64,000 nt of DNA from Candidatus Aminicenantes bacterium (GCA_011049545.1 DRHQ01000083.1:29766-93765); one strand, 5' to 3'; positions 2,677 through 35,676 are shown, numbered from the stretch's first letter. Notes: generated by a model not told the origin, from the sequence alone. Made by a program: numbers and translations.

Positions 2677-2759
2677 TCGGGACGTCCCTATCTGCACTAT
2701 CTATATTTTGTAACACTTTTTAAAATAACAACATTTCTGTATGCAGAGGTTTTTCTTAT

Positions 2760-3051
2760 GTAGGGGCTTGATTCATCAAGCCCACCTTATTTATATATGA
2801 ATTTACTTCTTGTCTGGATTTGGTTTTTCTTAAATGGTTTATTTCTTGTAGGGGCTTGATTCATCAAGCCCACCTTTTTGAATGTATAAATAAACTAAAG
2901 GGTTTTGTTTATCTTATGCAGGGGCATGATTCTTGTAGGGGCTTGATTCATCAAGCCCACCTTATTCATGTATGGATTTACTTCTTATCTGGATTTGGCT
3001 CTTCTGTAATGGTTTGCTTCTTGTAGGGGCTTGATTCATCAAGCCCACCTT
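2760..3051. repeat. Tandem array of 4 copies of a 29-bp hairpin repeat (GTAGGGGCTTGATTCATCAAGCCCACCTT; stem GGGCTTGA/TCAAGCCC) separated by ~59-bp spacers, two of which are ~80% identical to each other
   Basis: Copies at 2760-2788, 2848-2876, 2935-2963 and 3023-3051, with a degenerate copy at 2919-2933. The array lies between the convergent atpD and namZ-like genes. Confidence 0.85.
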
Positions 3052-3076
3052 TTAAAATCGATGAAATTATTTTTCC

Positions 3077-10518: not shown

Positions 10519-10524
10519 CATCTT

Positions 10525-10553
10525 GTAGGGGCTTGATTCATCAAGCCCACCTT
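10525..10553. repeat. Hairpin repeat family P2 (GTAGGGGCTTGATTCATCAAGCCCACCTT)
   Basis: Identical to the 2760-3051 units, including the following …tttttgaat[ag]tat[ac]aataaact… flank. Confidence 0.85.
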
Positions 10554-10593
10554 TTTGAATATATCAATAAACTGTATGTCATTAAAATGGGGC

Positions 10594-10616: not shown

Positions 10617-10672
10617 AGCCATCTTAATGGGCACAACCCTCAATATTGATCTTTTTTTGTAGGCGTTTGATT

Positions 10673-10701
10673 GTAGGGGCTTGATTCATCAAGCCCACCT
10701 T
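10673..10701. repeat. Hairpin repeat family P2
   Basis: gtaggggcttgattcatcaagcccacctt, preceded by a degenerate half-copy (gtaggcgtttgat). Confidence 0.8.
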
Positions 10702-10795
10702 TTTAATATTAATAATTTATTTGTATTTTTGATAAATCAACCACCTTCACAAATAAAAGGAATCCAAACACCCATTGCCCTTCTACAAGACATTC

Positions 10796-18035: not shown

Positions 18036-19757
18036 ATGAAAAAAATTATCGTTCTTCCGCCTGAAATATCCCTGAAAATTGCTGCGGGTGAAGTCATCGA
18101 GAGACCTTTTTCAGTTGTCAAGGAATTGGTGGAGAACTCTTTGGATGCCAGTGCTTCGGAGATAAAAGTCGAGCTTCTTTCCGGAGGAAAGAAACTGGTA
18201 AGAGTTACGGACAATGGCCATGGAATGAGACGAGAAGATGCCAATCTGTGTTTTGAAAGGCATTCAACCAGCAAGATTCGAAGTGTCGAAGACCTCAGCC
18301 TGATTGCAACCCTGGGTTTTAGAGGAGAGGCTCTGCCCAGTATCTCTGCTGTCTCCAGGGTTGTTTTAAAGACATCCGATGGCAAAGAGGAGAAAGGTAC
18401 TCTGATTGAAAAAGAAGGAGAGAAGATAATCCAAACTTCAGACGTCGCTTTTCCGCTGGGAACATCCGTTGAAGTCAGAGACCTATTCTTTAATTTACCT
18501 GCGAGGGAAAAATTTCTCCGCTCAGATAGATCTGAACTTAACCTGATTGTGAAATTCATGACTTTTGCTTCCATAGCTTACCCGGAAGTGAGGTTTTCTT
18601 TAATCCACGGTAAAAGGCAGGTCTTTGATTATCCACCTGTAAGCAGTCTCAAGGAAAGGATTTTTCAGGTTTTCGGGAAATCCATGTTAGAACGACTCCT
18701 GGAGATTGATTACAAGGAGGATGATAAGCAGCTTTATGGATATGCTTCTCTTCCGCCAGCAGGGCATCGAGATAGAACCCTCCAGCTCTTTTATGTGAAC
18801 AAAAGACCGGTAAGAGATCGAACTCTCCTGGCTGCCCTGAATCAAGCTTACAGAGGCTTTTTAGAAAAAGATAGATATGCCGAAGCTTTCCTTTTTCTCT
18901 CCTATCCCTATACTGAGGTCGACATAAATGTCCATCCAGCCAAAGCAGAAGTCAGGTTTAAAGATTCCCGCCCTGTTTTTCAGCTTGTATACCGGAGTAT
19001 CGAGCAGGCCATTCTCAGGGAGAAAGGAGTAAAAAAGATCTATCCTACTAAGGAAGAAGAAATGGGTTCCAGGATGGAGGAAAAAAGAAGCTTCGGCATA
19101 GGAGAGGAAAGAGATGGGCCTGCTGTTATGAGGATCGGGGAACGGAAGCGAGAATGGAAAGATTTGTTCACTCCCCTTGCCAAGCAGGAAGAGACATCCC
19201 CGCACCTCCTGGGGCAGTATCTGGATATATATATAGTTGCCTGTTCTGAAGAGGGCATACTTATCGTCGATCAGCACAATGCCCATGAGAGGATTCTTTT
19301 TGAAAAATATGAAGAAATAGATAAAGAAAAGAAATGGCCTCAAAAATTGGCTCTTCTTCCTATTCTTTTCGAGCTCTCTCCATCCCAGCTTTTGAGTTTT
19401 GAAAATAATCAAGCCATGCTGGAGGAGGCAGGATTCAGGGTGGAGGCCATGGGAGGGCAGAGCTTTGCCTTAAAAGAGTACCCTGATATATTTAAAGAGG
19501 AGGAAGCAAAGGATATATTTATCTCTCTTCTTGAAGAAAAGAAGGGAGAGCAAATCGAGGATAAAAAAAAGAGACTGTTAGCCACACTGGCCTGTAAGAC
19601 TGCTATAAAAGCAGGGCAGATTTTATCTTACGAAAAGATGAATTACCTGGTGGAAGAGCTTTTCAAAACATCAAATTCATCCCTCTGCCCTCATGGAAGG
19701 CCCATTATCGTCAAGATAGATAAGAAGGAAATAGAGCGGGGTTTAAAAAGGAGCTGA
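18036..19757 (+). CDS. mutL: DNA mismatch repair protein MutL
   Basis: 573-aa ORF. N-terminal GHKL ATPase motifs (…AAGEVIERPFSVVKELVENSLDA…) and a C-terminal dimerisation domain. Confidence 0.9.
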   Translation: MKKIIVLPPEISLKIAAGEVIERPFSVVKELVENSLDASASEIKVELLSGGKKLVRVTDNGHGMRREDANLCFERHSTSKIRSVEDLSLIATLGFRGEALPSISAVSRVVLKTSDGKEEKGTLIEKEGEKIIQTSDVAFPLGTSVEVRDLFFNLPAREKFLRSDRSELNLIVKFMTFASIAYPEVRFSLIHGKRQVFDYPPVSSLKERIFQVFGKSMLERLLEIDYKEDDKQLYGYASLPPAGHRDRTLQLFYVNKRPVRDRTLLAALNQAYRGFLEKDRYAEAFLFLSYPYTEVDINVHPAKAEVRFKDSRPVFQLVYRSIEQAILREKGVKKIYPTKEEEMGSRMEEKRSFGIGEERDGPAVMRIGERKREWKDLFTPLAKQEETSPHLLGQYLDIYIVACSEEGILIVDQHNAHERILFEKYEEIDKEKKWPQKLALLPILFELSPSQLLSFENNQAMLEEAGFRVEAMGGQSFALKEYPDIFKEEEAKDIFISLLEEKKGEQIEDKKKRLLATLACKTAIKAGQILSYEKMNYLVEELFKTSNSSLCPHGRPIIVKIDKKEIERGLKRS

Positions 19758-20089: not shown

Positions 20090-20235
20090 CCCTTCCTCCT
20101 TATTTACCAATAGCTTTCCTTGGATTTTGATTTCATAGAGCCTATACTATTTTTAGTTTTTTTGACACAAAAATGTCAAAGGAGTGACAAATTCGACATC
20201 CCACTGTTACACGGGCTGATGTCTGGTTTTTTCTC

Positions 20236-20912: not shown

Positions 20913-21022
20913 ACACTCATAGCATACAAATCCAAGCCTTCCTGAGGTTGAGGATGCCAGGAAGAGGCTGGTTCCGTCCAGATCTTCTTATAAGCCCAAA
21001 GAAAAATAGGCTACGAAGGCCG

Positions 21023-21084
21023 AGCGGGTGGCTGTTAACCACTAGGTTGTAGGTTCGAGTCCTACCCGAGGAGCCATCTTTTTA
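21023..21084 (+). repeat. 3' fragment of a tRNA-Asn(GTT)-like gene (anticodon arm + T arm + acceptor 3' + CCA), direct repeat copy 1
   Basis: ggtgg-ctGTTaa-ccact…gtagg-ttcgagt-cctac-ccgagga-g-cca. No matching 5' acceptor or D arm upstream. ~95% identical to 29921-29982. Confidence 0.75.
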
Positions 21085-21191
21085 TGGGGTAAAAAGCTCT
21101 CGACTATTTAAGCAACCTTATCCGTAGTTAGGCAAGTTTAGGCATTTATTGACACACCACTGACACACAGGAATAGGTGTGTTTTTCTTGT

Positions 21192-22280: not shown

Positions 22281-22474
22281 CGAAGAGAAGCATTGATTAA
22301 TACACTCCTAAAATTTAATAAATCTTTTGATCTCGATTTTTACTCCCTGCCTTTCAATACTCCCAATCTCGACTGGCGATCTGTGTCGCACGATGGGTAT
22401 TATGTAAACTTGCTACCTTGTAAAATGACCTTGAGAGCGGGAGAATAGATTATTGAGGGAAAAGGAGGGGGACA

Positions 22475-24114: not shown

Positions 24115-24192
24115 TAGTAATTCTGCTTCTTTAATAATCATTATGTTAACTCGCTCCGTATGAAATGACCTTTATATATTTTAGGAGTAGAC

Positions 24193-25560: not shown

Positions 25561-25647
25561 AACTTATTTGTCTAAGAGCTAATACCTCTAATGCTTTGCT
25601 ACCTTCTAAGATAAAGAGCCTAAAATAAAGATGGAAGTTTAGACAAG

Positions 25648-25700
25648 TGGAAGTCAAAAACCCTAAAGCCCTAGCTTCCCCGATTTCTGAAAAAGACAGT
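25648..25700 (+). repeat. Island hairpin motif family P5, copy A (GGAAG[CT]CAAA-N-CCTAAAGCC-YTRGCTTCCC-N-GAT[TT]GAAAAAG)
   Basis: Imperfect inverted repeat GGAAGCCAA/TTGGCTTCC followed by GATTGAAAAAG. Four copies, each 60-130 bp upstream of an ORF (25780, 28174, 31890, 32334). Confidence 0.7.
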
Positions 25701-25779
25701 AGAGCGAATTTAAAGCTAATTTCTCTTTCCCGGGAAGATTGTGCCGCACAATCGATATTATGTAAACTTATAAAAACCT

Positions 25780-26688
25780 ATGTCGAATCATAAAAAACAA
25801 CATTCTGTTCCCAAATGTTATCTCAGGGAATTTATTGACCCAGAAACTCCAGGTGGATATGAGCCTTTTATTTGGATTTTTGATAAAAACGGCAAGAACA
25901 AAAGAAAGAAGGCACCTAAAAATGTATTAACAAGTAACAATCTATACACTATTGAAGTCGAAGGGAAGGCTAGGGATTATTCTATTGAAAAAAGCCTCTC
26001 TTCTATTGAGAACGATTTTGCAATTTTGTTCAGACAGAAAATCAAAAATCTATTGCCATTATCAGAGGAGGAGCACATATCTTTGTGCATTTTTATAGCC
26101 ACTATGCTCCAGAGAACTGTTAGCCAGAAAGCTAATCTAGAACATTTCCTTGATGAGCTAATTTCACATGGCGAAAAATTAGCAGCACATCATGGAATTA
26201 AGTCGAGGACTGTTGAGAGCCTAAAAAACTACAAAAGAGATGCTCATAAACTCAATATTTTGAAGATGTTTCCAGAAGTGACTCAAATTTTATTAAATAT
26301 GAGCTTGGCATTCGTAATAGTGGGGAGAAGCAAATCTCGGTTTATTACCTCCGATGACCCATGCACCCTTTTTAATCCAAAATTAAGAGAGCAACGCCTT
26401 ATGGGTCCAGGATTGGGTCAGAAGGAAGTTGAATTGACTATTCCATTATCTCCTGAGATTGCACTCTGTTTGAGCTGGAGTAATTTTCGGGGATTTATTG
26501 AAATTGGAAAACGACAGATTGAAGAATTAAATAGAACAACGCGAGCCCATTGCTATGAACTCTTTATTTCCTCTAGTTCCCATAAAAAATTTAGATGGTT
26601 TTTAAAATACCCTTTGAGCCTAATTTTTGTCATGAAAGTTATCAGACAGAAGTTTAATTATAGAATTCATAGAAATTTTCACTCATGA
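25780..26688 (+). CDS. DUF4238-like protein
   Basis: 302-aa ORF whose N-terminus (HSVPKCYLREF) fits, to my recollection, the family signature H-x-V/I-P-x-x-YL-R/K-x-F. Preceded by a repeated tattatgtaaactt -10-like element. Confidence 0.55.
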   Translation: MSNHKKQHSVPKCYLREFIDPETPGGYEPFIWIFDKNGKNKRKKAPKNVLTSNNLYTIEVEGKARDYSIEKSLSSIENDFAILFRQKIKNLLPLSEEEHISLCIFIATMLQRTVSQKANLEHFLDELISHGEKLAAHHGIKSRTVESLKNYKRDAHKLNILKMFPEVTQILLNMSLAFVIVGRSKSRFITSDDPCTLFNPKLREQRLMGPGLGQKEVELTIPLSPEIALCLSWSNFRGFIEIGKRQIEELNRTTRAHCYELFISSSSHKKFRWFLKYPLSLIFVMKVIRQKFNYRIHRNFHS

Positions 26689-26697
26689 ATTCAAGTT

Positions 26698-27564
26698 ATG
26701 GCAAAAGAAGATAGATATTCACTCGCGTTATATTTAGCCTCTAAAGGCCAACTGGACAAAGCCTCATTCCTTCTGTGGAAGATAGTTGAGAAAACAAATA
26801 GTGCAGAGTTAATGCTGAACTCCATATTGGCTTTGGTTACTATGTTGGGGCGAAAAGAAAACAACGAAAAAATTATAAATCTATGTGATAAGGGAATTGA
26901 ACTCTCTTATAGACTCAATAATGAGAATGCCAAAGCATTTCTAATGGCGACTAAAGCTCTAAGCATAATAATTGAAGTCGAATTCAATCTACACAAGAAG
27001 AAGAATCTTGTTTTAGCACCGGGGTGGAAGGAATTTGCCTTGGAATCCATAAAGGAGGAGTTCACAGTCCTTACAAGAAAGATTGAGCAAAACCGGAGTG
27101 AATCACAACAATTGATAACTGAATCCTTCAAAGGAATCAGTTCAAGTCAAATTAGTGAAACACTAGCAGACGTTTTAATGATAAAAGGTGAATATCATTT
27201 TGATGAATACCTGAATTACAAAATAGAAAATATCAAAACTACAAAATTTAGACTGTTTCTAAAGAACGTCAGTAACATTGACTCTTTTCTTTATAATCAG
27301 AGTAGCCAAAAAACTACAAAAAGAATTTTAAAGGACTCAAAGAAGTGCATCATTGATGCAGCACAGATTTATAAGAATCTAGGAGATGAAATAAATCAAG
27401 CAAATGCTTATTTAAACTTAGCAAATCAAGCGATTTCGATAAATCGTAAAAAGGAAGCGAGGAAATATCTAAAAAAAGCAATTACTGAAGTTCAAAACAA
27501 TAAAAATTTGGAAATATTGAACAGAATTAGAAATTTGGAAGAACGATTAATGAAACATGATTAG
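26698..27564 (+). CDS. Hypothetical alpha-helical (TPR-like) protein, probably co-transcribed with the DUF4238-like gene
   Basis: 288-aa ORF 9 bp downstream of the previous stop. Repetitive helical hairpin pattern (…AYLNLANQAISINRKKEARKYLKKA…). Confidence 0.5.
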   Translation: MAKEDRYSLALYLASKGQLDKASFLLWKIVEKTNSAELMLNSILALVTMLGRKENNEKIINLCDKGIELSYRLNNENAKAFLMATKALSIIIEVEFNLHKKKNLVLAPGWKEFALESIKEEFTVLTRKIEQNRSESQQLITESFKGISSSQISETLADVLMIKGEYHFDEYLNYKIENIKTTKFRLFLKNVSNIDSFLYNQSSQKTTKRILKDSKKCIIDAAQIYKNLGDEINQANAYLNLANQAISINRKKEARKYLKKAITEVQNNKNLEILNRIRNLEERLMKHD

Positions 27565-28065
27565 TAGTATTGGAAATAGCACTTAGGAATATAACTCCCC
27601 GTTGGGGAATGTCATTTACAATGATTTAAGCGAAATGGAGACTCAACCATTTTGAAGTAGGTCCCCAATAAAGAAGCTTCAGTCCTTCGGTGTTTGGATG
27701 TTCAGATTGAGCTAAACATAGTAAAGAACACAAACTACTATACAAAGGTCACATATTAAAAGAAAAGCAATACTTCAGTTAGATCCATGCCCCATAATCA
27801 TATTCATCCCTGGATACTCCATTCTAATCTTCAGTTCTGAATATCCCTTCAACTTGTGATATAATATCCTCAAAAGTCCTTCATTCGGTTTGAAGGCGGC
27901 CTGAATAAGGCTCACTTCCGGTGAAGCCTTGGTGGCACATTTAAATAGCTGGTCCATTGTCCTCCAGGAACTTCTTACTTAATTCGTTTTTTTTGTACTA
28001 CAATTATGGCATTTTTTCAACATGGGGGATTTCCAAATTCTATACTAAAAAAATTTTAGGTAGAG

Positions 28066-28115
28066 CTTAAGCCAAATACCCTAAAGCCCTGGCTTCCCTA
28101 GATTGAAAAAGATAT
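28066..28115 (+). repeat. Island hairpin motif family P5, copy B
   Basis: aagccaaataccctaaagccctggcttccctagattgaaaaag. Confidence 0.7.
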
Positions 28116-28173
28116 CATTAAGGGTGGAAATTACCCTCAAGAACATAGACTGATTTTATAGGGGGACATTCTC

Positions 28174-29187
28174 GTGTTACTTTTTGATGACGGTTTATTT
28201 TCTCTTGATAGTCCGAAAGAGAGTTTTGCGGATGAAAGCTGGTCTGGAAATCTTTGGTATCGGACTAATGTAATTGCTCCTATAGAATCCCCTAAGGATT
28301 TAAGCTGGCTTTTTGAAATTGAACAAGAAGCAAGAAAGCTAGGTTATCTTGGAGAAGTAAAATCATATTTTGCTTATCAAATTATTATCCATTTAGATGT
28401 CAAAAGAAGAAATAGAATTTGGAGATTAATTCAAGATGTTCCTATTCTTATAATTGACCCAAAATATTATTTAAGAGAATTCGGAATAAAAATTATAAAT
28501 CAATACAGTTATTCATTTGAAATATATGGAGTAAAATTCCAAATAAATCGGTCAGACCAGATGTTTAAAAAATATGAAGAACTTCTTCAAGAATTATTAT
28601 CCCAGAGAGTACTCATTGATTCTCTTTTACCTGATTTAGAAAATGCCATAAGAAATATTTCAGCTCGCTATGATGTGTTTCCAGGCATATATGACTTCGA
28701 ACCGAAAAGAATATTGAAACAATTAAATTTCAAGAAACCAAAAAAGCAAATAATAAATGTTGTCAAACTCTCATCAAGGCTTCATAGCGCTTTTATTGAA
28801 CTGGGTGATAGAGATTCAATAAATTCTGCAATGGACGGATTATCATATTTTAAAATGGATTTACTGTTCCCATTATCTCACTTTTATAGGGATTTATTGA
28901 TTAAATCTATATCAAGAAACTGCTATTTTGATGAAGGTGACACGAAGTCCATTGAATTTATTAGAGGATTAATCAATAAAGTTAAGACTGGTTTAACTCA
29001 TGATATTTTTGGAAAATATTCGGCCATTCCAGAAGCAAAAATTGAAGAAATCAAATCTGAAGAAGATATAAGAATGCGCGCTTCAGATGTAATATCTGGG
29101 ATTGCCAGAATGATTTATGATTCTGAGGGGATAAGAGGTTTAAAGAACAAATTTTCTTATATATTTTTTAATGGTCGCAGAATATAG
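28174..29187 (+). CDS. Hypothetical protein
   Basis: 337-aa ORF with GTG start after AGGGGGAC. AT-rich, no recognisable domain. Confidence 0.5.
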   Translation: MLLFDDGLFSLDSPKESFADESWSGNLWYRTNVIAPIESPKDLSWLFEIEQEARKLGYLGEVKSYFAYQIIIHLDVKRRNRIWRLIQDVPILIIDPKYYLREFGIKIINQYSYSFEIYGVKFQINRSDQMFKKYEELLQELLSQRVLIDSLLPDLENAIRNISARYDVFPGIYDFEPKRILKQLNFKKPKKQIINVVKLSSRLHSAFIELGDRDSINSAMDGLSYFKMDLLFPLSHFYRDLLIKSISRNCYFDEGDTKSIEFIRGLINKVKTGLTHDIFGKYSAIPEAKIEEIKSEEDIRMRASDVISGIARMIYDSEGIRGLKNKFSYIFFNGRRI

Positions 29188-29484
29188 AATAAAGAAAATA
29201 TTTGGAAGGTATACACTTTACCCCAAGTATTTTGTTTGCCTTCTTTCCAGTTAATTGCACTCGTTCACTTTCTCATTCTATGTTTCTCGTTTGGGCAATA
29301 AAGCCAATCCTCAAGCCTTGAACATCAATCCACCCTGTCCCCAGGCGAAGGATTGCGTCGCATATCTATTATTATGTATACTACTATAACTCACATAATA
29401 TCAGTAAGTTGCGATGATTTAGATTTGAAATATTATCCCATTTTGGGCCAAAAAAAGGGGGTAAATTCCCGTTTTTCAAATAGG

Positions 29485-29575
29485 GGTGGCGTCTGACTGC
29501 GAATCAGAAGGTCGTCGGTTCGAATTCGATCTCCCCGATTAAAGCTTAAGACGGATAAAGGAACAATCGGATATA
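29485..29575 (+). repeat. tRNA 3'-fragment direct repeat (copy of tRNA-Pro T arm, acceptor 3' end and 37 bp of downstream flank)
   Basis: 29510-29575 matches 19914-19979 at 64/66 positions (…ggtcgtcggttcgaat[ct]cgatctccccgattaaa[ag]cttaagacggataaaggaacaatcggatata). It is preceded by an unrelated anticodon-arm-like hairpin and has no 5' tRNA half. Confidence 0.8.
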
Positions 29576-29659
29576 AAAATAAGTTCTTCCTGTCTTCTCA
29601 CCTTCAGCCAGATTTAGAGGGGTCTAAATGAATCTGATATTACCAAGCTCTGTAAGCCA

Positions 29660-29860
29660 TTACGGAATTACATCTTTAAACTTCTCTGAAGCAGGTTCTC
29701 CACCAATTCCCCAGTGTGATTTTTGGATTTCATGAATAATCACTTCTACAGCCTGAGTGGGAATCCCTAAATCTACAAAGACCTTAGTTATATTTTGGAT
29801 TGTGATTTTTGCTTTTTCCTGTCCGAAACCTTCCCAGACATTTACATGGATAACGGGCAT
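29660..29860 (-). CDS. Tautomerase family protein (4-oxalocrotonate tautomerase-like)
   Basis: 66-aa ORF starting MPVIHVNVWEG… with catalytic Pro1 after Met, at the typical tautomerase-family length. Confidence 0.6.
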   Translation of the reverse strand: MPVIHVNVWEGFGQEKAKITIQNITKVFVDLGIPTQAVEVIIHEIQKSHWGIGGEPASEKFKDVIP

Positions 29861-29920
29861 TTATTACCTCCAAAGTTTTGTTGATAATAATACTCTACTA
29901 TCTGGATTCTGAAAAATCAA

Positions 29921-29982
29921 AGCGGGTGGCTGTTAACCACTAGGTTGTAGGTTCGAGTCCTGCCCGAGGAGCCATCTTTTTA
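29921..29982 (+). repeat. 3' fragment of a tRNA-Asn(GTT)-like gene, direct repeat copy 2
   Basis: Same as 21023-21084 with one T-stem substitution (cctgc vs cctac). No 5' half present. Confidence 0.75.
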
Positions 29983-30103
29983 GGGGCCAGAGACAACCTC
30001 TCATTTACTCACCATTAGGCAATAGCGAGCAATTGTAGTCATTTTGTGTCATGCGGACGTCACCGGTCTATCACATGGCAGAAAACAGGTCATTATTACG
30101 TGG

Positions 30104-30200
30104 GCTTGACATTTGTCTTCCAACAATTGACCTCATTTTTTCCCTGTGATATAAGCCATAGAGAGTGTTAGCTTCAGCTAGTTGGTGGGATCGTTAATTC
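30104..30200 (+). promoter_or_regulatory. Repeated promoter + leader module, copy 3
   Basis: ttgacc-N17-tgatataag-ccatagagagtgttagcttcagctag, upstream of the 30276 ORF. Confidence 0.4.
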
Positions 30201-30275
30201 TGCTCCTGCTATTTTCATTAGGCTGATTTCACGAAAAATTAAATCTAGCTCAAAGATTAGGAGGGATAACCAGTA

Positions 30276-31760
30276 ATGAAGAAAAACTGGATGGCAGAAC
30301 TCACCTATCATTATGAAAAAACTCGGCGCCGATATCCTCAAGATCGGCTGATGATTCTTTTTGATATCGACGGTACAATTCTAGATATGCGCTATATGGT
30401 ATTTCATGTCCTGAAAGCCTTTGATAAAAAGCATGACACCCATTTTTTTCGAAAGCTTAATGTCTCTGATATTACTGTACACGAGAATCAAGTGGATAGT
30501 TTTTTAGCAGAGTTACGAATTCCATCAGAGGAACAGAGAGAGATCATAAAGTGGTATAATCAGCATCGCTGGTCTTCGGAGTATATCCTTCAGTCCCACC
30601 ATCCATTTTCTGGAGTGCTTGAGGTTATTCGATGGTTCCAACTCCAGCCAAATACCTTTGTTGGCTTGAATACTGGCCGGCCTGAATCAATTCTAAGCGA
30701 CACCTTGAGATCCCTGAATAAATTAGGTAAAGAGTATAAAGTTCAATTTAGTGATGAACTGTTGCGTATGAATCCTGGGGGCTGGGAACAAGAAGTAGAA
30801 AATTCGAAGGTTGCTGGAGTGCGCTATTTTCAAAAAAAAGGGTATCACATCTTCGCCTTTGTAGACAACGAGCCCAATAATTTGAAGGTGGTTTCCAATA
30901 TTGATCCAGATCAAGAAATTCTCCTACTTCATGCGAATACTATCTTCGAATCTAAAAGGACCAGATTACCTTCCCGTACGGTCAAAGGTAAAGCATACGA
31001 CATAACTGAACTAATTCCCGAGAAAGAACTGCCCCAGCATATTCAATTTGTTTGGCATGGTATAAACGACGAAGTGAACTTACGTCAATTTCTAGCTTCT
31101 GAGATTACTTGGGGGGAATGTGATGTTCGTATGGATCCCATAGCCAATGAGTTGATTCTTCGTCACGATTCCTTTGTAGAACTCCCTCTGGATGTAGACG
31201 AAGATTGGTTTAGTTTGGATCGTCTGCTCCATCGCTTGTTAAAAACAGGCAAGTCAATTAAGCTCGATTTAAAGTCAGGCGGTATTTTGGTAGATAAGGC
31301 TTTGAAATTCATTGAATCTTCCAGCTTTGATGAATCTCGCCTGTGGTTTAACGGCAATGTGGAAAGACTGCAAGAGCAAGGGTTCAGAAAATTAGCCAGT
31401 GCCCACCCCGATGCTATTTTGCAATGCCCTGTTGATTTTTTAGCTCCTCTGATTAGCAGTGCCCCAGAAAAAGCTCAGGAAATACTCGATATGTTTATAA
31501 AATGGGGTATCAACCGCTTTTCCATTAATTGGAAAACTCAGAACATGCGCAATTTCTTTGATCAGATGGATAAATGGGGATTTGAAGTCAATATTTACAA
31601 CGTTCCTGATTTAGAGTCATTCCTGGAGATGGTGCTTCTCATGCCGCGATCTATCACGTCCGATTTCAATTTTCCTAAATGGCATTATTATGGCAGAGGC
31701 TCAGGAGAAGATGGTAGCCATTATGAATATTCTATACGAAAGACGAAAGGAAGAAAGTAG
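30276..31760 (+). CDS. Fusion protein: N-terminal HAD-superfamily phosphatase domain + C-terminal GDPD/PLC-like phosphodiesterase (TIM-barrel) domain
   Basis: 494-aa ORF. Carries HAD motif I ILFDIDGTILD. The C-terminal half (FVWHGINDEVN…ECDVRMDPIANELILRHDSF) parallels the GDPD pattern H-R-G…E-N…E-x-D-V…H-D. Confidence 0.55.
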   Translation: MKKNWMAELTYHYEKTRRRYPQDRLMILFDIDGTILDMRYMVFHVLKAFDKKHDTHFFRKLNVSDITVHENQVDSFLAELRIPSEEQREIIKWYNQHRWSSEYILQSHHPFSGVLEVIRWFQLQPNTFVGLNTGRPESILSDTLRSLNKLGKEYKVQFSDELLRMNPGGWEQEVENSKVAGVRYFQKKGYHIFAFVDNEPNNLKVVSNIDPDQEILLLHANTIFESKRTRLPSRTVKGKAYDITELIPEKELPQHIQFVWHGINDEVNLRQFLASEITWGECDVRMDPIANELILRHDSFVELPLDVDEDWFSLDRLLHRLLKTGKSIKLDLKSGGILVDKALKFIESSSFDESRLWFNGNVERLQEQGFRKLASAHPDAILQCPVDFLAPLISSAPEKAQEILDMFIKWGINRFSINWKTQNMRNFFDQMDKWGFEVNIYNVPDLESFLEMVLLMPRSITSDFNFPKWHYYGRGSGEDGSHYEYSIRKTKGRK

Positions 31761-31802
31761 GTGCAACTAGAAGTTTACACACCATGAAAAATTATCCAGA
31801 GC

Positions 31803-31850
31803 AGGAAGCCAAAGACATTAAAGCCTTGGCTTCCCTGGATTGAAAAAGGA
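31803..31850 (+). repeat. Island hairpin motif family P5, copy C
   Basis: ggaagccaaagacattaaagccttggcttccctggattgaaaaag (best palindrome of the family). Confidence 0.7.
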
Positions 31851-31889
31851 CGCTGATCGAGTTAGAATTCTTATAAGGGAGTAAAAAAT

Positions 31890-32243
31890 ATGAAAGTTTT
31901 ACTCATTATTAACGATGCACCGTATGGGACAGAAAAAGCCTACAATGCTATGCGGCTAGCGATGATGATTCAAAAAGAACACGCTGATGCAGAGGTTCGT
32001 ATTTTCCTGCTGGCAGATGCAGTAACATGTGCGGTCCCAAAACAGTCAACTCCAGAGGGATACTACAATCTAGAACGGATGTTTAAATCGGTCATAAAAA
32101 AGGGTGGAGTAGTGAAGGCTTGTGGTACGTGTGCCAACGCTCGCGGAATCAAAGGAATAAACCTGATAGATGGTATTGAAATAAGCACAATGAGCCAATT
32201 GAGCCAATGGACAGTAAGTTCAGACAAAGTTTTAACCTTCTGA
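31890..32243 (+). CDS. DsrE/DsrF-like (TusD-like sulfur-relay fold) family protein
   Basis: 117-aa ORF: MKVLLIINDAPYGTEKAYNAMRLA…KACGTCANARGI… — length and motifs recalled as DsrE/DsrF-family-like. Confidence 0.55.
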   Translation: MKVLLIINDAPYGTEKAYNAMRLAMMIQKEHADAEVRIFLLADAVTCAVPKQSTPEGYYNLERMFKSVIKKGGVVKACGTCANARGIKGINLIDGIEISTMSQLSQWTVSSDKVLTF

Positions 32244-32296
32244 AGCTACAATATTAAAGTTATATAATCCTGAATTTTCATATCTTTTGAGGCGAG

Positions 32297-32330
32297 TGGA
32301 AGCCAAATCTCCTAAAGCCTTCGACTTCCC
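32297..32330 (+). repeat. Island hairpin motif family P5, copy D (degenerate)
   Basis: ggaagccaaatctcctaaagccttcgacttccc. Confidence 0.55.
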
Positions 32331-32333
32331 ATT

Positions 32334-32555
32334 ATGCAGGAGGTGGTTGAGAAGCACCCCGATTATAGCAATCCGAAGAATGGATTTGCGCAAATCTGGT
32401 ATTCGGAGCATTGTACGGAAGAGCTTTTATCCTTGGTAGCGCTGCGGAAGCCTAACTGCAAGGATCAGATGCGGTCTATTTGTTGCCTGCATCCGCTTGT
32501 TGGGCAGTCAGTGCGACGTAGATCACCGATGGAGTTTTCGAATCGTCTCGTTTGA
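32334..32555 (+). CDS. Possible small hypothetical ORF (73 aa) overlapping the 3' end of the convergent NYN gene
   Basis: ATG directly after P5 copy D with an AGGAGG-like site. Overlaps the opposite-strand gene by ~80 bp; may be spurious. Confidence 0.25.
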   Translation: MQEVVEKHPDYSNPKNGFAQIWYSEHCTEELLSLVALRKPNCKDQMRSICCLHPLVGQSVRRRSPMEFSNRLV

Positions 32556-33225
32556 GTGTAAATGTTTTGCGGCAATCCTTAATGAGCGACAGGAGACCTT
32601 TGTGACCAAATGTCCGGGGATCAAATGCCGGGTCCAATCGACGAAGAACAGACCCCATTGTCGACAGATTAATCCATTCTTCTTCCCTCGCAACCATCTC
32701 GAACGCTTTAAGAAGAAGAGGCTCAGGGTCAGACAGATCAGACTTCTCTTCCTTTTTCGTTATTTTGTTCGTTTCCTTTGTTTCAGTAAGGTTCTCGCAA
32801 TAGATAAATTGATTGCATGCGTTGGTGAAGGCTTCTGGAGTTTTCTTCTCCCCGACTCCAATGACAAAAAGCCCTTCCTCTCTTATTCTTGTTGCTAGTC
32901 GTGTGTAATCGCTATCACTGGAAACAATGCAAAAGCCGCCAACATCGTTGCTGTGGAGTAGATCCATCGCATCGATTATCATCGCGCTATCTGTTGCATT
33001 CTTGCCGACCGTATACCTGAACTGCTGAATCGGTTGAATAGCATGTTTGTGGAGTAATTTTTTCCAGCTATTCATGCTTGTAGTGGTCCAGTCTCCATAT
33101 ATCCGCTTGACTGTGATCATGCCGAATTTGCTAATTTCTGCCAAGATCTGAGGAAGAAGTGACGCTTGCGCATTGTCTCCATCAATGAGTACGGCAAACT
33201 TTTCTTGCTTAGATTGTTCATCCAT
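32476..33225 (-). CDS. NYN (LabA-like) nuclease domain protein with C-terminal OST-HTH/LOTUS domain
   Basis: Start chosen at the ATG preceded by GGAGGG (MDEQSKQEKFAVLIDGDNA…). Carries NYN acidic residues (D-x-D-N, …SSDSDY…) and a C-terminal LOTUS-like helix-turn-helix. Confidence 0.65.
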   Translation of the reverse strand: MDEQSKQEKFAVLIDGDNAQASLLPQILAEISKFGMITVKRIYGDWTTTSMNSWKKLLHKHAIQPIQQFRYTVGKNATDSAMIIDAMDLLHSNDVGGFCIVSSDSDYTRLATRIREEGLFVIGVGEKKTPEAFTNACNQFIYCENLTETKETNKITKKEEKSDLSDPEPLLLKAFEMVAREEEWINLSTMGSVLRRLDPAFDPRTFGHKGLLSLIKDCRKTFTLKRDDSKTPSVIYVALTAQQADAGNK

Positions 33226-33409
33226 TTTGTAGCCCTCCACTGGTCGATTTAGGCCCAACAATTACTATACCGCATGCAATAAAATGTGAAAACTGAAGCT
33301 CAAATAACATCTTGAATTAATGAACCCATGCATCATAGCAATGAAAACACAGTAATATTCTATCAATATCCTTGTTATGCTACAAGCCTCATATCTATTA
33401 TTATGTTAA

Positions 33410-33957: not shown

Positions 33958-33985
33958 GCGGTCAGATTCGTGGCCGTTTTTTTTT
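33958..33985 (+). terminator. Rho-independent terminator after the Zn-ribbon gene (part of a repeated 'agagcggtYagattYgYggccgTTTTTTT' module)
   Basis: Stem cggtca/tggccg followed by T9. A similar module recurs at 35262-35297. Confidence 0.55.
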
Positions 33986-34017
33986 ATCCGGAGAAAACCA
34001 TATCCTTTCACGGGTCC

Positions 34018-34040
34018 GAAAATGGGGCCAGGCCCCATTT
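34018..34040. repeat. Palindromic repeat family P1
   Basis: aaatggggccaggccccattt. Confidence 0.8.
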
Positions 34041-34090
34041 CTCTAACGATTATTGAGGAAGGATAAATGAATTATGTTTCCTATTGAGTC

Positions 34091-34885
34091 ATGATCGATA
34101 CGTTCATTATTAAGTTGGTCCTTTCCTTCATTGTGGGCGGTGCTTGGGTCACAATCGCGACTTTGATCGCTGATAAATATGGAACAAAATTAGGCGGTAT
34201 TATCATAGGTCTTCCCTCCACTCTGCTCGTGTCTCTGTTTTTCATCGGTTGGACGCAGTCTCCTGGTGTGGCAGTTGAAGCGACAACGATTGTGCCGATC
34301 ATCGGAGCTGTCAACGCGTTGTTTCTGGTTGCGTATATCGCCCTGGTCAGAGTGAACTTTTGGATGGCGTTATCTGGCTCGGCACTTTTTTGGGCTTTGT
34401 GTTCGTTTAGTTTGTTAGTTTTTAAGTTCAGCAATTTTTATCTTTCATTAATGATCTATGTCATCGTGGTGTTCATTTCGTATTTCATAATTGAAAAGGG
34501 AATTAGAGTAAAATCAAAGTCCGCCCGAGAGATAACGCACACTGTCGGCACTTTACTGTTCCGGGGACTCTTAAGCGGAACGATAATTGCTCTCGCAGTG
34601 GCGATGGGAAAGATCGGGGGCCCGCTGTTGGGCGGCATATTCGCCATGTTTCCAGCCATGTTCCTGAGCACTGTATTGATCACTTATTTTTCTCAGGGAC
34701 CGCTGTTTTCCTCTGCGGTGATGAAAGTTGCACTTTTCAGTGCAGTGAGCGTGGTTTTGTATGGAGTGCTTGTGAGGTCCACGTATATCCCGCTTGGGTT
34801 GGGGTGGGGGACTCTTGTATCGATCATCATTTCTTTTTCCACTGCGTTTTTTATTCATGTCCTTGTCATCAAGAGAATATCCTGA
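34091..34885 (+). CDS. Polytopic integral membrane protein (≥6 TM helices), unknown function
   Basis: 264-aa ORF that is hydrophobic throughout. The two halves look internally similar (…GGIIIGLPSTLLVS… / …GGIFAMFPAMFLST…). Confidence 0.6.
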   Translation: MIDTFIIKLVLSFIVGGAWVTIATLIADKYGTKLGGIIIGLPSTLLVSLFFIGWTQSPGVAVEATTIVPIIGAVNALFLVAYIALVRVNFWMALSGSALFWALCSFSLLVFKFSNFYLSLMIYVIVVFISYFIIEKGIRVKSKSAREITHTVGTLLFRGLLSGTIIALAVAMGKIGGPLLGGIFAMFPAMFLSTVLITYFSQGPLFSSAVMKVALFSAVSVVLYGVLVRSTYIPLGLGWGTLVSIIISFSTAFFIHVLVIKRIS

Positions 34886-35025
34886 TAACTCCGGGGAAAG
34901 AGATAAGGACAGGTATTTATGCTCAGTAATTAGGTAACATTTTTGCTCTATCTGTCGAAGAAAAAAGTGTCATTGCGGGCGTAATACTAAAAAATCGATG
35001 AGGAATATAATATAAATTATGTCTA

Positions 35026-35075
35026 CCTGTGACTTCAAAGTTATTGATTATCAAGAAGTCTATAAATAATGAAAG
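35026..35075 (+). repeat. ~50-bp direct repeat, right copy (pairs with 33410-33460)
   Basis: cctgtgacttcaaagttattgattatcaagaagtctataaataatgaaag. Confidence 0.7.
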
Positions 35076-35238
35076 ACGGGATAGTTTGACAATTTATGTT
35101 TAAAATTCGGTCCATCTTTAGGTGAAGATAGATTTTATTTTTCGGGAAGCACAAACTCATAATCAATGAAATATTTATATTTGTTCGTATGATAGTAAAC
35201 AAGATCTGGATTCATAGAGCCGACGCATAAAAGGCGTA

Positions 35239-35260
35239 AATGGGGCCTGGCCCCATTTCT
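35239..35260. repeat. Palindromic repeat family P1
   Basis: aaatggggcctggccccattt; a half copy also sits at 35296-35320. Confidence 0.8.
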
Positions 35261-35676
35261 CATAGAGCGGTTAGATTTGCGGCCGGTTTTTTTAAAAGCA
35301 GCCTGGCCCCATTTCCCAACACCTCATTTCCCAACATCTCCCAGTCTGTAGGGTGATTTTGGCTTGTATGTATCCTCGACTGCGGTGAACTTTTTAGCCT
35401 TTTCAGGTGAGGGAATGAATGCAAAATTCATCTTTCATATCCTCTCTACTGATGATTGACAGTATGAGAGCACTCTGCAACCATATGAGCTTGCTGTTAA
35501 TAACCTGTGGAGACTATTTGAAGAAACTGTTTTTGGGAAGAAGAGAAAAATAACCTGCAGTGACCGTCTATTATTTATGAATTATTTGAGAGCTGTTTCA
35601 AGAAAGACAAACTTGATAGGAGTTGACAAATATTGTCAAATTGTTTATTTTTAAAGGAACCTTTTGAGGATCAATA

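Follow-up and report, generated by a model that had tools for sequence, protein, structure and literature searches.

In T4-type phages, repeats composed of a stem-loop and a promoter (PeSL) flank orphan genes in hyperplastic regions, where genes are shuffled by homologous recombination with crossovers in the loop or beside the stem (PMC2839356). The repeat described here was found in a stretch of 64,000 nucleotides from a Candidatus Aminicenantes bacterium (GCA_011049545.1 DRHQ01000083.1:29766-93765), hereafter the window, in which four copies lie among accessory genes between positions 25,648 and 32,330. It marks the boundaries of gene cassettes, and exchanges occur at these boundaries. Its closest analogue is the PeSL "mobile regulatory cassettes" of T4-type phages (PMC2839356, PMC4122927), here in a bacterial chromosome. 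Both elements are short, conserved and intergenic, combine a stem-loop with promoter-like sequence (here a complete promoter in a minority of copies), are co-oriented with the genes, and border orphan genes in hypervariable regions. For both, breakpoints fall inside the repeat, with crossovers in the loop or adjacent to the stem, the insertions, deletions and replacements that distinguish close relatives coincide with the element, and a dedicated recombinase is not known. While PeSL reside in phage genomes, the host of the present repeat is a bacterial chromosome with mutL, tRNA genes, pilBTC, and lpxK, and a search for a viral origin returned no repeat match among the 2.9 million viral contigs of IMG/VR. 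The stem-loop of PeSL acts as a transcription terminator. The two repeats are unrelated in sequence, and the present one has a long conserved loop, no U-run or G/C tracts, and a full sigma-70 promoter in about 13% of its copies. Mini-circles are a feature of PeSL; no circle junction was seen for the present repeat.

Integron arrays, including CALINs, are alike in layout. They consist mostly of co-oriented cassettes with a single open reading frame (ORF) and an imperfect-palindrome repeat just after each ORF, carry highly diverse cargo that is partly phage defence, contain a minority of reversed cassettes, and in many cases have no adjacent integrase. In contrast to attC, which keeps its structure (an imperfect hairpin of 57–141 nt), the present repeat keeps its sequence, and its crossover positions are scattered. 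An assignment to attC was rejected: the 262-copy consensus has no conserved AAC...GTT pair (R'' RYYYAAC / R' GTTRRRY), the (A/G)TTGAGG left box and the ATTGAAA tail are direct repeats and not complementary, and there is only an 8–9-bp stem with a 13–15-nt loop, with no long R''-L''...L'-R' hairpin and no compensatory changes. No integron integrase was found in the examined ORFs of the window or in the array flanks, which are contig fragments, so that a distant intI is possible. The tyrosine recombinases present in five loci score 62–76 bits against TIGR02249, the integron integrase model, whose cut-off is 265.

Xer-based modules, namely pdif of Acinetobacter plasmids and IMEX at dif, are alike in that short sites bound small gene modules and a host-type tyrosine recombinase is used. 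Genuine dif-like 28-bp sites also occur in the same arrays as the present repeat, co-oriented with it and sometimes 9 nt past it. The dif-like sites here are direct repeats, whereas pdif modules use alternating inverted sites. The repeat itself was rejected as a dif site, its arms being 8–9 bp around a 13–15-bp centre, compared with the 11-bp arms and 6-bp spacer of dif. REP/BIME and Correia-type repeats are likewise short palindromic intergenic repeats with possible promoter or processing signals that act as recombination substrates. However, they occur throughout the genome, in many cases as pairs or in both orientations, and are tied to RAYT transposases or to terminal inverted repeats with TA duplications, while the present repeat is clustered on one strand and shows neither association.

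Cassette boundaries in the window and across the repeat family

The four copies in the window are all on the + strand.

25634..25739, + strand: repeat copy 1, core 25649-25680, left box degenerate (TTTAGACAAGTGG), nhmmer E = 3.5e-20; its + strand tail, GATTTCTGAAAAAGACAGTAGAGCGAATTT, leads into a dif-like site, a tail type also present in locus L026 at 1786
28053..28173, + strand: repeat copy 2, core 28067-28098, left arm degenerate (TTAAGCC), nhmmer E = 6.8e-17; its + strand tail holds GATTGAAAAAG at 28101-28111 and is of the long type B, ending ...GACATTCTC and abutting the GTG at 28174
31803..31887, + strand: repeat copy 3, core 31804-31835, with the best hairpin (GGAAGCCAA/TTGGCTTCC at 31804-31834); its + strand tail comprises TTGAAA (31840), a 17-nt spacer, TAGAAT (to 31868), the ribosome-binding site AAGGGAG, and the ATG at 31890
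32283..32340, + strand: repeat copy 4, the last of the array, core 32298-32330, with a perfect left box (TTGAGGCGAGTGG, 32287-32299), left arm and loop; its right side, also on the + strand, has a degenerate right arm (TTCGACTTCC) and no tail, and a convergent NYN/LOTUS gene is next

An earlier note on this DNA had reported four copies in one orientation, which pattern, profile and repeat finding all bear out. A degenerate pattern matched three of the four, with none expected from 100 shuffles of the window; a profile built from the four copies matched them all (E ~1e-15 in the 64-kb window) and found no fifth copy in the 64 kb, the next match having E = 0.14; and an independent repeat finding grouped them as one family (D6). 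The copies are not terminator-like, as the note had also stated from the missing T-run on either strand, and a terminator scan of the window found no terminator-like site, i.e., a G+C-rich hairpin followed by a T-run, at any of them. Other claims needed revision. The unit of 45 bp proposed there was too small, since the conserved unit extends from a sharp left edge at RTTGAGGCGAGTGG through a tail to about +70 (GATTGAAAAAGACAGCTGAGCGAATTAG). The label "island-specific" applies inside the 64-kb window, but the family counts at least 300 copies in related genomes. The supposedly fixed downstream tail is exact (GATTGAAAAAG) in copies 2 and 3, interrupted in copy 1 (GATTTCTGAAAAAG), and missing from copy 4. 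ORF starts 60–130 bp downstream were recovered for copies 1 to 3, with core-to-start distances of 131 nt (DUF4238 gene, 25780), 107 nt (GTG, 28174) and 86 nt (DsrE-like gene, 31890), but not convincingly for copy 4. The 73-aa ORF that follows it (32334-32555) runs into the convergent NYN/LOTUS gene (32476-33261, - strand) at the latter's 3' end and is probably not a gene. As the left box of copy 4 begins at 32287, 44 nt past the stop of the DsrE-like gene (which ends at 32243), this copy is better placed as an element downstream of that gene than as one upstream of the 73-aa ORF.

The motif itself served to retrieve all further loci of the family (L numbers), which lie on short contigs and bear the taxon labels of metagenome-assembled genome (MAG) records. 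An exact-pattern scan of species-representative genomes gave 25 loci with 22 true copies, a metagenome scan gave at least 120 loci, and an nhmmer profile run over all retrieved loci detected 311 copies in 147 loci totalling 738 kb. Most copies come from MAGs labelled Candidatus Aminicenantes and from contigs of marine or deep-subsurface sediment. A small number of bins are labelled differently, some of them as archaea, possibly through errors of binning. In L013, a MAG labelled "uncultured Eubacteriales", MutL is 93% identical to that of the window, and the mutL-tRNA-Pro-tRNA-Arg synteny is shared. The window encodes the lipid A genes lpxK and an acyltransferase, and its host is therefore a diderm; the label of L013 is likely mis-assigned, and the archaeal labels of some other matches probably are as well.

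The copies sit between co-oriented genes, with about one ORF per interval, in regions that vary between strains. Among loci with several copies, the strand is uniform in 85 and mixed in five, and the longest arrays hold eight copies in 12.7 kb (L128) and six copies (L079 and L132). Consecutive co-oriented copies enclose 158 intervals with a median length of 1235 bp, of which 108 contain one ORF and 27 contain two. All ORFs are co-oriented with the repeats in 137 of these intervals; in seven, all are reversed and the repeats keep the array orientation, as around the Shedu gene in L079. A same-strand ORF ends upstream of 158 of the 177 copies with enough flank (median of 47 nt from the stop to AAGCC), and in about 10% of copies no more than about 11 nt separate the upstream stop from the core, which places that stop at, or close to, the TGA in the left box. 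Downstream, a same-strand ORF starts after 153 of the 177 copies, at a median of 147 nt (interquartile range 101–212 nt). Copies in random orientation or position relative to genes, which would have meant a generic mini-repeat according to the earlier note, were looked for in the public scans and not seen. The literature search on the motif sequence, or on Aminicenantes together with attC or such arrays, returned nothing relevant, and the repeat is an undescribed, widespread family of conserved cassette-boundary repeats of 45–90 bp.

The family consensus is RTTGAGGCGAGTGG-AAGCCAAA-NN-CCCTAAAGCC-YTGGCTTCCC-nGGATTGAAAAAGACAGCTGAGCGAATTAG, in the order of an A-rich run, RTTGAGGCGAGTGG, an inverted repeat with a conserved loop, CCC, and (T)GGATTGAAAAAGACAGCTGAGCGAATTAG. 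Each element holds three AAGCC units, one in each arm and one in the loop, that of the right arm being inverted. The tails that follow are modular. Type A has a promoter-like TTGAAA-17-TAGAAT and a ribosome-binding site and is found in window copy 3 and before many 6-bladed-propeller genes; the 85-nt leader of copy 3 also precedes unrelated genes of this kind in L013, L014, L031, L024, and L028. Type B, to which window copy 2 belongs, is longer and ends ...GGGAAATTCTCA just before the ribosome-binding site or start codon. Types C and D run into a dif-like site, and window copy 1 is of type D. A short-loop sub-family, GGAAGCCAG(G)-N5-7-(C)CTGGCCTCC, was also observed (L098, L120:3670, L108:8347, L121:3282, and L092:2029), in which the stem is kept and lengthened, the CCTAAAGCC loop is absent, and the single mismatch would be a G-T wobble on the opposite strand.

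Exchange of cassettes at the repeat

The exact DsrE-like protein encoded between copies 3 and 4 occurs on 21 marine-sediment metagenome contigs, where its left neighbour varies, being a HAD-like gene, AbiEii/AbiEi on the opposite strand (L005), or others (L010). Both L005 and L010 become homologous to the window precisely at the left edge of copy 3 (31803/31804). In L004, the entire segment from 20.2 to 29.3 kb is exchanged for an AIPR gene and a 236-aa ORF. Between strains, copy 3 differs in its left arm and loop (77% identity) and is about 96% identical from around +40 on.

Across the family, 83 of 237 internal ends of homology between loci (35%) lie from -80 to +180 of a copy, compared with 11% expected. 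Seventeen pairs of copies share one flank, nine only the downstream and eight only the upstream one, with breakpoints at the left edge, at the arm/loop junction, just past CTTCCC, or near +40. Six homology blocks (301–1893 bp, 82–96% identity) have copies at both ends in both loci and unrelated flanks; therefore, the same cassette occupies different arrays. Eleven left-truncated copies were listed that begin in or just before (CC)TAAAGCCCTGGCTTCCC, one of them being the first copy of the L079 array, and a few copies retain the left half only; the left half is likewise perfect and the right half degenerate in the window's last copy. In one strain (L005 2723-2783), the loop of the copy 4 equivalent is inverted between unchanged arms and reads GGCTTTAGGGCC, not ..TCCTAAAGCC, an arrangement that hairpin-mediated template switching, or an inversion across the arms, would be expected to produce. 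No case of a single cassette present or absent at a copy was found in the strain comparisons, which revealed only two indels, both elsewhere.

It is an evenly balanced judgement that the repeat is a cassette-boundary recombination seam, sometimes with expression signals. The 45–90 bp common to every cassette end would act as a portable homology patch for recombination, because each cassette carries the same sequence at its ends, and through this patch cassettes might be deleted, inserted (e.g., from incoming DNA), or reshuffled. As the crossovers are scattered from -15 to +40 of the core, RecA-type recombination or gene conversion fits better than a fixed cleavage point. A sequence-specific reader would preserve the repeat; a DNA-binding protein recognising the three AAGCC half-sites, of which two are direct and one is inverted, is the most likely candidate. 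The tail of one sub-type, to which window copy 3 belongs, may also provide the downstream gene with a sigma-70-like promoter and a ribosome-binding site. Of the options raised in the earlier note, that of a recombination site is thus favoured, as a cassette seam with scattered crossovers and not as a proven site-specific site.

Several points weigh against the seam. The exchanges were read from contig comparison, and no recombination event was seen directly. BLAST extends through any conserved repeat, so that breakpoints within the element are coarsely resolved, and, since the loci were retrieved by the motif, per-genome copy numbers and the lack of copies in core regions are established for this window only. 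The 19-nt core CCTAAAGCCCTGGCTTCCC is near-invariant in hundreds of copies, for which passive homology alone is no explanation, and a protein reader of this core is hypothetical. Such near-invariance calls for a sequence-specific reader, and a site-specific recombinase therefore stays a serious rival. Furthermore, the -10 box is found in 18 of 135 copies, so that the "regulatory cassette" half of the likeness to PeSL holds for a minority, and the hairpin is not followed by a U-run.

Sequence conservation and rival explanations

More than 90% of the core positions are kept as sequence. Stem deviations in 244 copies are nearly all one-sided mismatches, with about three compensatory doubles. The covariation analysis of the stem that had been suggested as a check, run on 95 aligned copies, gave a score of 0.109 against 0.108 for shuffled alignments, a score reached by 210 of 500 shuffles, and six of the nine stem pairs vary on one side only. 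In the window, the inverted repeat reported as conserved stands for copy 3, whose 9-bp stem folds better than shuffles (z = -2.5 for the + and -3.4 for the - strand), but not for copies 1, 2, and 4, whose stems are broken without compensating changes and whose folding is at the level of shuffles. Rfam at the gathering threshold (window and 20 loci) yielded nothing but tRNAs and a single group II intron domain; with E values of up to 10 allowed on two sub-regions, the repeat still had no match.

Other readings of the conserved positions were rejected. An outer helix, TGAGGCG/CGCCTCA, that would define an RNA of about 100 nt matched its own partner in 27 of 122 cases, compared with 97 of 610 shuffled pairings; with 58% of cells paired, it does no better than shuffles and shows no excess covariation. 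In a small ORF, GTG-GAA-GCC-AAA-..., third codon positions are conserved like the others and there is no codon periodicity; the Leu variants CTG/TTG/CTA look synonymous, yet the variation falls on positions one and two of a single codon. As a general sigma-70 promoter the element fails, because a -10 box lies 16–18 nt past TTGAAA in only 18 of 135 copies (13%); the remaining copies have the -35-like TTGAAA and no -10 box at that distance. The composite is complete in copy 3, with TTGAAA, 17 nt, and TAGAAT matching 10 of 12 consensus positions, and copy 3 is the sole copy that scored in a promoter scan of the window, where promoter-like sites overall were at chance level. The spacing of a sigma-54 reading of TGGCTT...TTGA, judged by eye, is 2 nt off. 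Since covariation, an outer helix, codon periodicity and an Rfam match are all absent and -10 boxes are few, the element is conserved as sequence and not as pairing.

These results bear on each of the rival explanations. A structured RNA element, which the earlier note had offered as a structured 5' UTR and which could also be an intercistronic processing site or a hairpin that stabilises the transcript, is now disfavoured to the point of being highly improbable. The orientation does follow the direction of transcription, the short-loop sub-family keeps the stem and swaps the loop, and we take the tail GGATTGAAA to resemble the 3' end of some CRISPR repeats; yet covariation at the level of shuffles, one-sided stem deviations, an outer helix at chance, three of four window copies folding no better than shuffles, and the missing Rfam family all speak against it. 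The operator suggested in the same note, a promoter-proximal DNA site of one transcription factor over many horizontally acquired genes with breakpoints as a by-product of shared sequence, agrees with an inverted repeat that is conserved as sequence without covariation, with an orientation fixed relative to genes, and with TTGAAA at a fixed distance, which the copy 3 sub-type extends to a full promoter with TAGAAT. It seems improbable nonetheless, as a properly spaced -10 box occurs in 13% of copies only, the downstream starts vary widely in distance (101–212 nt, median 147) while the upstream stops are close (47 nt), the array orientation is kept around reversed ORFs (seven intervals), the repeat also follows the last gene of an array (window copy 4), and no candidate regulator was found. 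Selfish miniature mobile repeats (MITE-, REP- or PATE-like) inserting between genes could account for the many copies that are near-identical across genomes, the sharp left edge and the truncated copies, in a genome that has other short repeat families, including a REP-like one of GTAG plus a hairpin. Against such a mini-repeat, which we regard as decidedly improbable, stand ends without terminal inverted repeats or target duplications (judged by eye), arrays on one strand (85 versus 5 loci), no copy in the window's 57 kb of core sequence, no strain pair differing by the repeat alone, and no match in the viral contigs.

The site-specific recombination site is possible, if rather unlikely. Here, the repeat would be the counterpart of attC, and a dedicated recombinase (e.g., Xer-like) would bind the AAGCC arms, exchange strands in or beside the loop and move one-gene circles. 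The integron-like layout (one orientation, about one ORF per interval, few reversed, diverse cargo) is consistent with this, as are the inverted 8–9-bp arms around an asymmetric centre conserved as sequence, the half-copies at array ends (the first of L079 and the last of the window) that resemble hybrid sites, the loop inverted between its arms in L005, the Xer-like integrase cluster downstream of the arrays in five loci, and the dif-like sites at a fixed 9 nt past the repeat in at least six loci. However, the crossovers in the 17 informative pairs are spread between the left edge and +40. There is no recombinase that regularly lies next to the repeat: the integrase is present in five of 147 loci, within a helix-turn-helix (HTH) gene-ORF-integrase module typical of tRNA-targeting islands, and the examined ORFs of the 64-kb window include no recombinase.

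Neighbouring elements, cargo and meaning of the arrays

In the window, the variable stretch with the copies is bordered by mutL (18036-19757), tRNA-Pro (19867), and tRNA-Arg (20012) on one side and by pilB, pilT, and pilC, from 35677, on the other. Its G+C content is 32% at 22–29.5 kb, compared with about 44% elsewhere in the window. The features between and beside the copies are as follows.

25741..25768, + strand: dif-like site GTGCCGCACAA-TCGATA-TTATGTAAACT, 28 bp, beginning 60 nt downstream of the copy 1 core and finishing 12 nt ahead of the DUF4238 start codon
25780..27564, + strand: cassette between copies 1 and 2, with a DUF4238 protein (25780-26688; PADLOC model DUF4238-Pers) and a 288-aa TPR protein (26698-27564)
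28174..29187, + strand: cassette after copy 2, a 337-aa orphan ORF
29895..29920, + strand: repeat-tail remnant (CTGGATTCTGAAAAATCAA; repeat family D5), fused to a tRNA-Asn 3' fragment (29921-29986)
30276..31760, + strand: cassette upstream of copy 3, a 494-aa HAD/Menorin-like protein
31890..32243, + strand: cassette between copies 3 and 4, a 117-aa DsrE/DsrF-like protein

DUF4238-Pers is a candidate defence model of PADLOC, and the 337-aa orphan ORF has no match in Pfam or PADLOC. The remnant at 29895-29920 was recognised by alignment with a metagenomic junction between repeat and tRNA. Repeat copies fused directly to tRNA fragments comprise this remnant, the metagenomic copy, L079:6859, and L132:372. 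The tRNA 3' fragments in the window are at 21009-21088 and 29921-29986 (tRNA-Asn) and at 29489-29578 (tRNA-Pro-like with 35 nt of downstream flank), and further ones were observed in L013 (3410-3480 and 4380-4425). Such 3' fragments downstream of the intact tRNA-Pro and tRNA-Arg are the footprint of repeated integration by tRNA-targeting elements.

The dif-like site at 25741 is a neighbour of the repeat and not a part of it, and a dif-like site lies within 300 nt downstream of about 12 of the roughly 300 repeat copies. Its right arm is identical to that of the Bacillus subtilis dif (PMC3025954). Sites of the form GYGTCGCAYAA-N6-TTATGTMAACT stand in direct orientation in the island at 22383-22410, 25741-25768, and 29355-29382, the last of which marks, on the right, the junction of the island segment that is replaced in L004; weaker ones lie at 24124, 33384, and 35000. 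Others were seen in L026 (1880), L034 (837), L110, L074, L097, L119, L121, and L150, and the repeat-bearing loci hold about 28 such sites in all, nearly all co-oriented with the repeat and with divergence right after the right arm. This suggests Xer-dependent modules or IMEX-like insertions. The HTH gene-ORF-Xer-like recombinase module downstream of the arrays (L020 5526-6917, L063 150-1202, L123 2194-3282, L126 1-1048, and L127 2590-3660) carries an operator-like sequence, TTGACAAATGTCACAAACTTGAC, which resembles window positions 20160-20195, past tRNA-Arg, where the window, L004, and L013 diverge. Because this sequence also lies beside tRNA-Arg in the window, the Xer-like integrase module probably belongs to tRNA-targeting islands.

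Further short repeats were observed in the window. A separate REP-like family, TTGTAGGGGCTTGATTCATCAAGCCCACC, consisting of GTAG and then a hairpin, has six copies, four at 2756-3071 with an 88-bp period and the remaining two at 10521-10573 and 10669-10721. The palindrome AAAATGGGGCCAGGCCCCATTTT occupies nine intergenic sites (8723, 8787, 10492, 10581, 33535, 34016, 35234, 35290, and 48955) and could be a terminator or another repeat family. A 1366-bp segment with a DUF3147 gene (33984-35350, gene at 34091-34885) is missing from the related contig L034; it is flanked by GGGGCC palindromes and a 45-nt direct repeat (33400 and 35016) that overlaps weak dif-like sites.

The cargo of the arrays is diverse and includes many phage-defence or surface proteins. 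The 668 ORFs fall into 471 clusters, 392 of which are singletons. Among 148 non-redundant cassette ORFs, 92 Pfam families were matched, with 18 6-bladed propellers, six outer-membrane beta-barrels, four OLD/GajA/AriA-like ATPases, three DNA methylases, and two Mrr-type nucleases. Separate Pfam scans of individual array ORFs identified SMODS+SLATT, Shedu, Schlafen, and an M78 peptidase. The array flanks hold core genes, such as mutL and pilB in the window and PTA and RecD2 in L079. As 59% of the 668 ORFs are without relatives in the set and known defence genes occur among them, a search for new defence and surface functions can be focused on these arrays, and the 19-nt pattern provides a handle with which hundreds of accessory cassettes can be retrieved from metagenomes.

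To our knowledge, integrons have so far been the main documented bacterial means of keeping ordered stockpiles of single-gene cassettes, and they were recently shown to store phage-defence systems. Here, an integron-like layout that lacks both attC and an integron integrase is built around another repeat, one conserved in sequence, in Aminicenantes, a candidate phylum known mostly from metagenomes. If the repeat supplies homology only, the PeSL principle of portable seams in phages would extend to bacterial chromosomes, and if it is a true recombination site, it would represent a new cassette system. It is a tentative and, at present, unlikely proposal that the repeat is the site of a new integron-independent cassette-capture system, in which a dedicated or co-opted Xer-like tyrosine recombinase acts on the AAGCC inverted repeat, possibly together with the dif-like sites. 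If true, defence and surface genes would be stored in a second "biobank" that evolved independently, formed by these arrays in Aminicenantes-like sediment bacteria.

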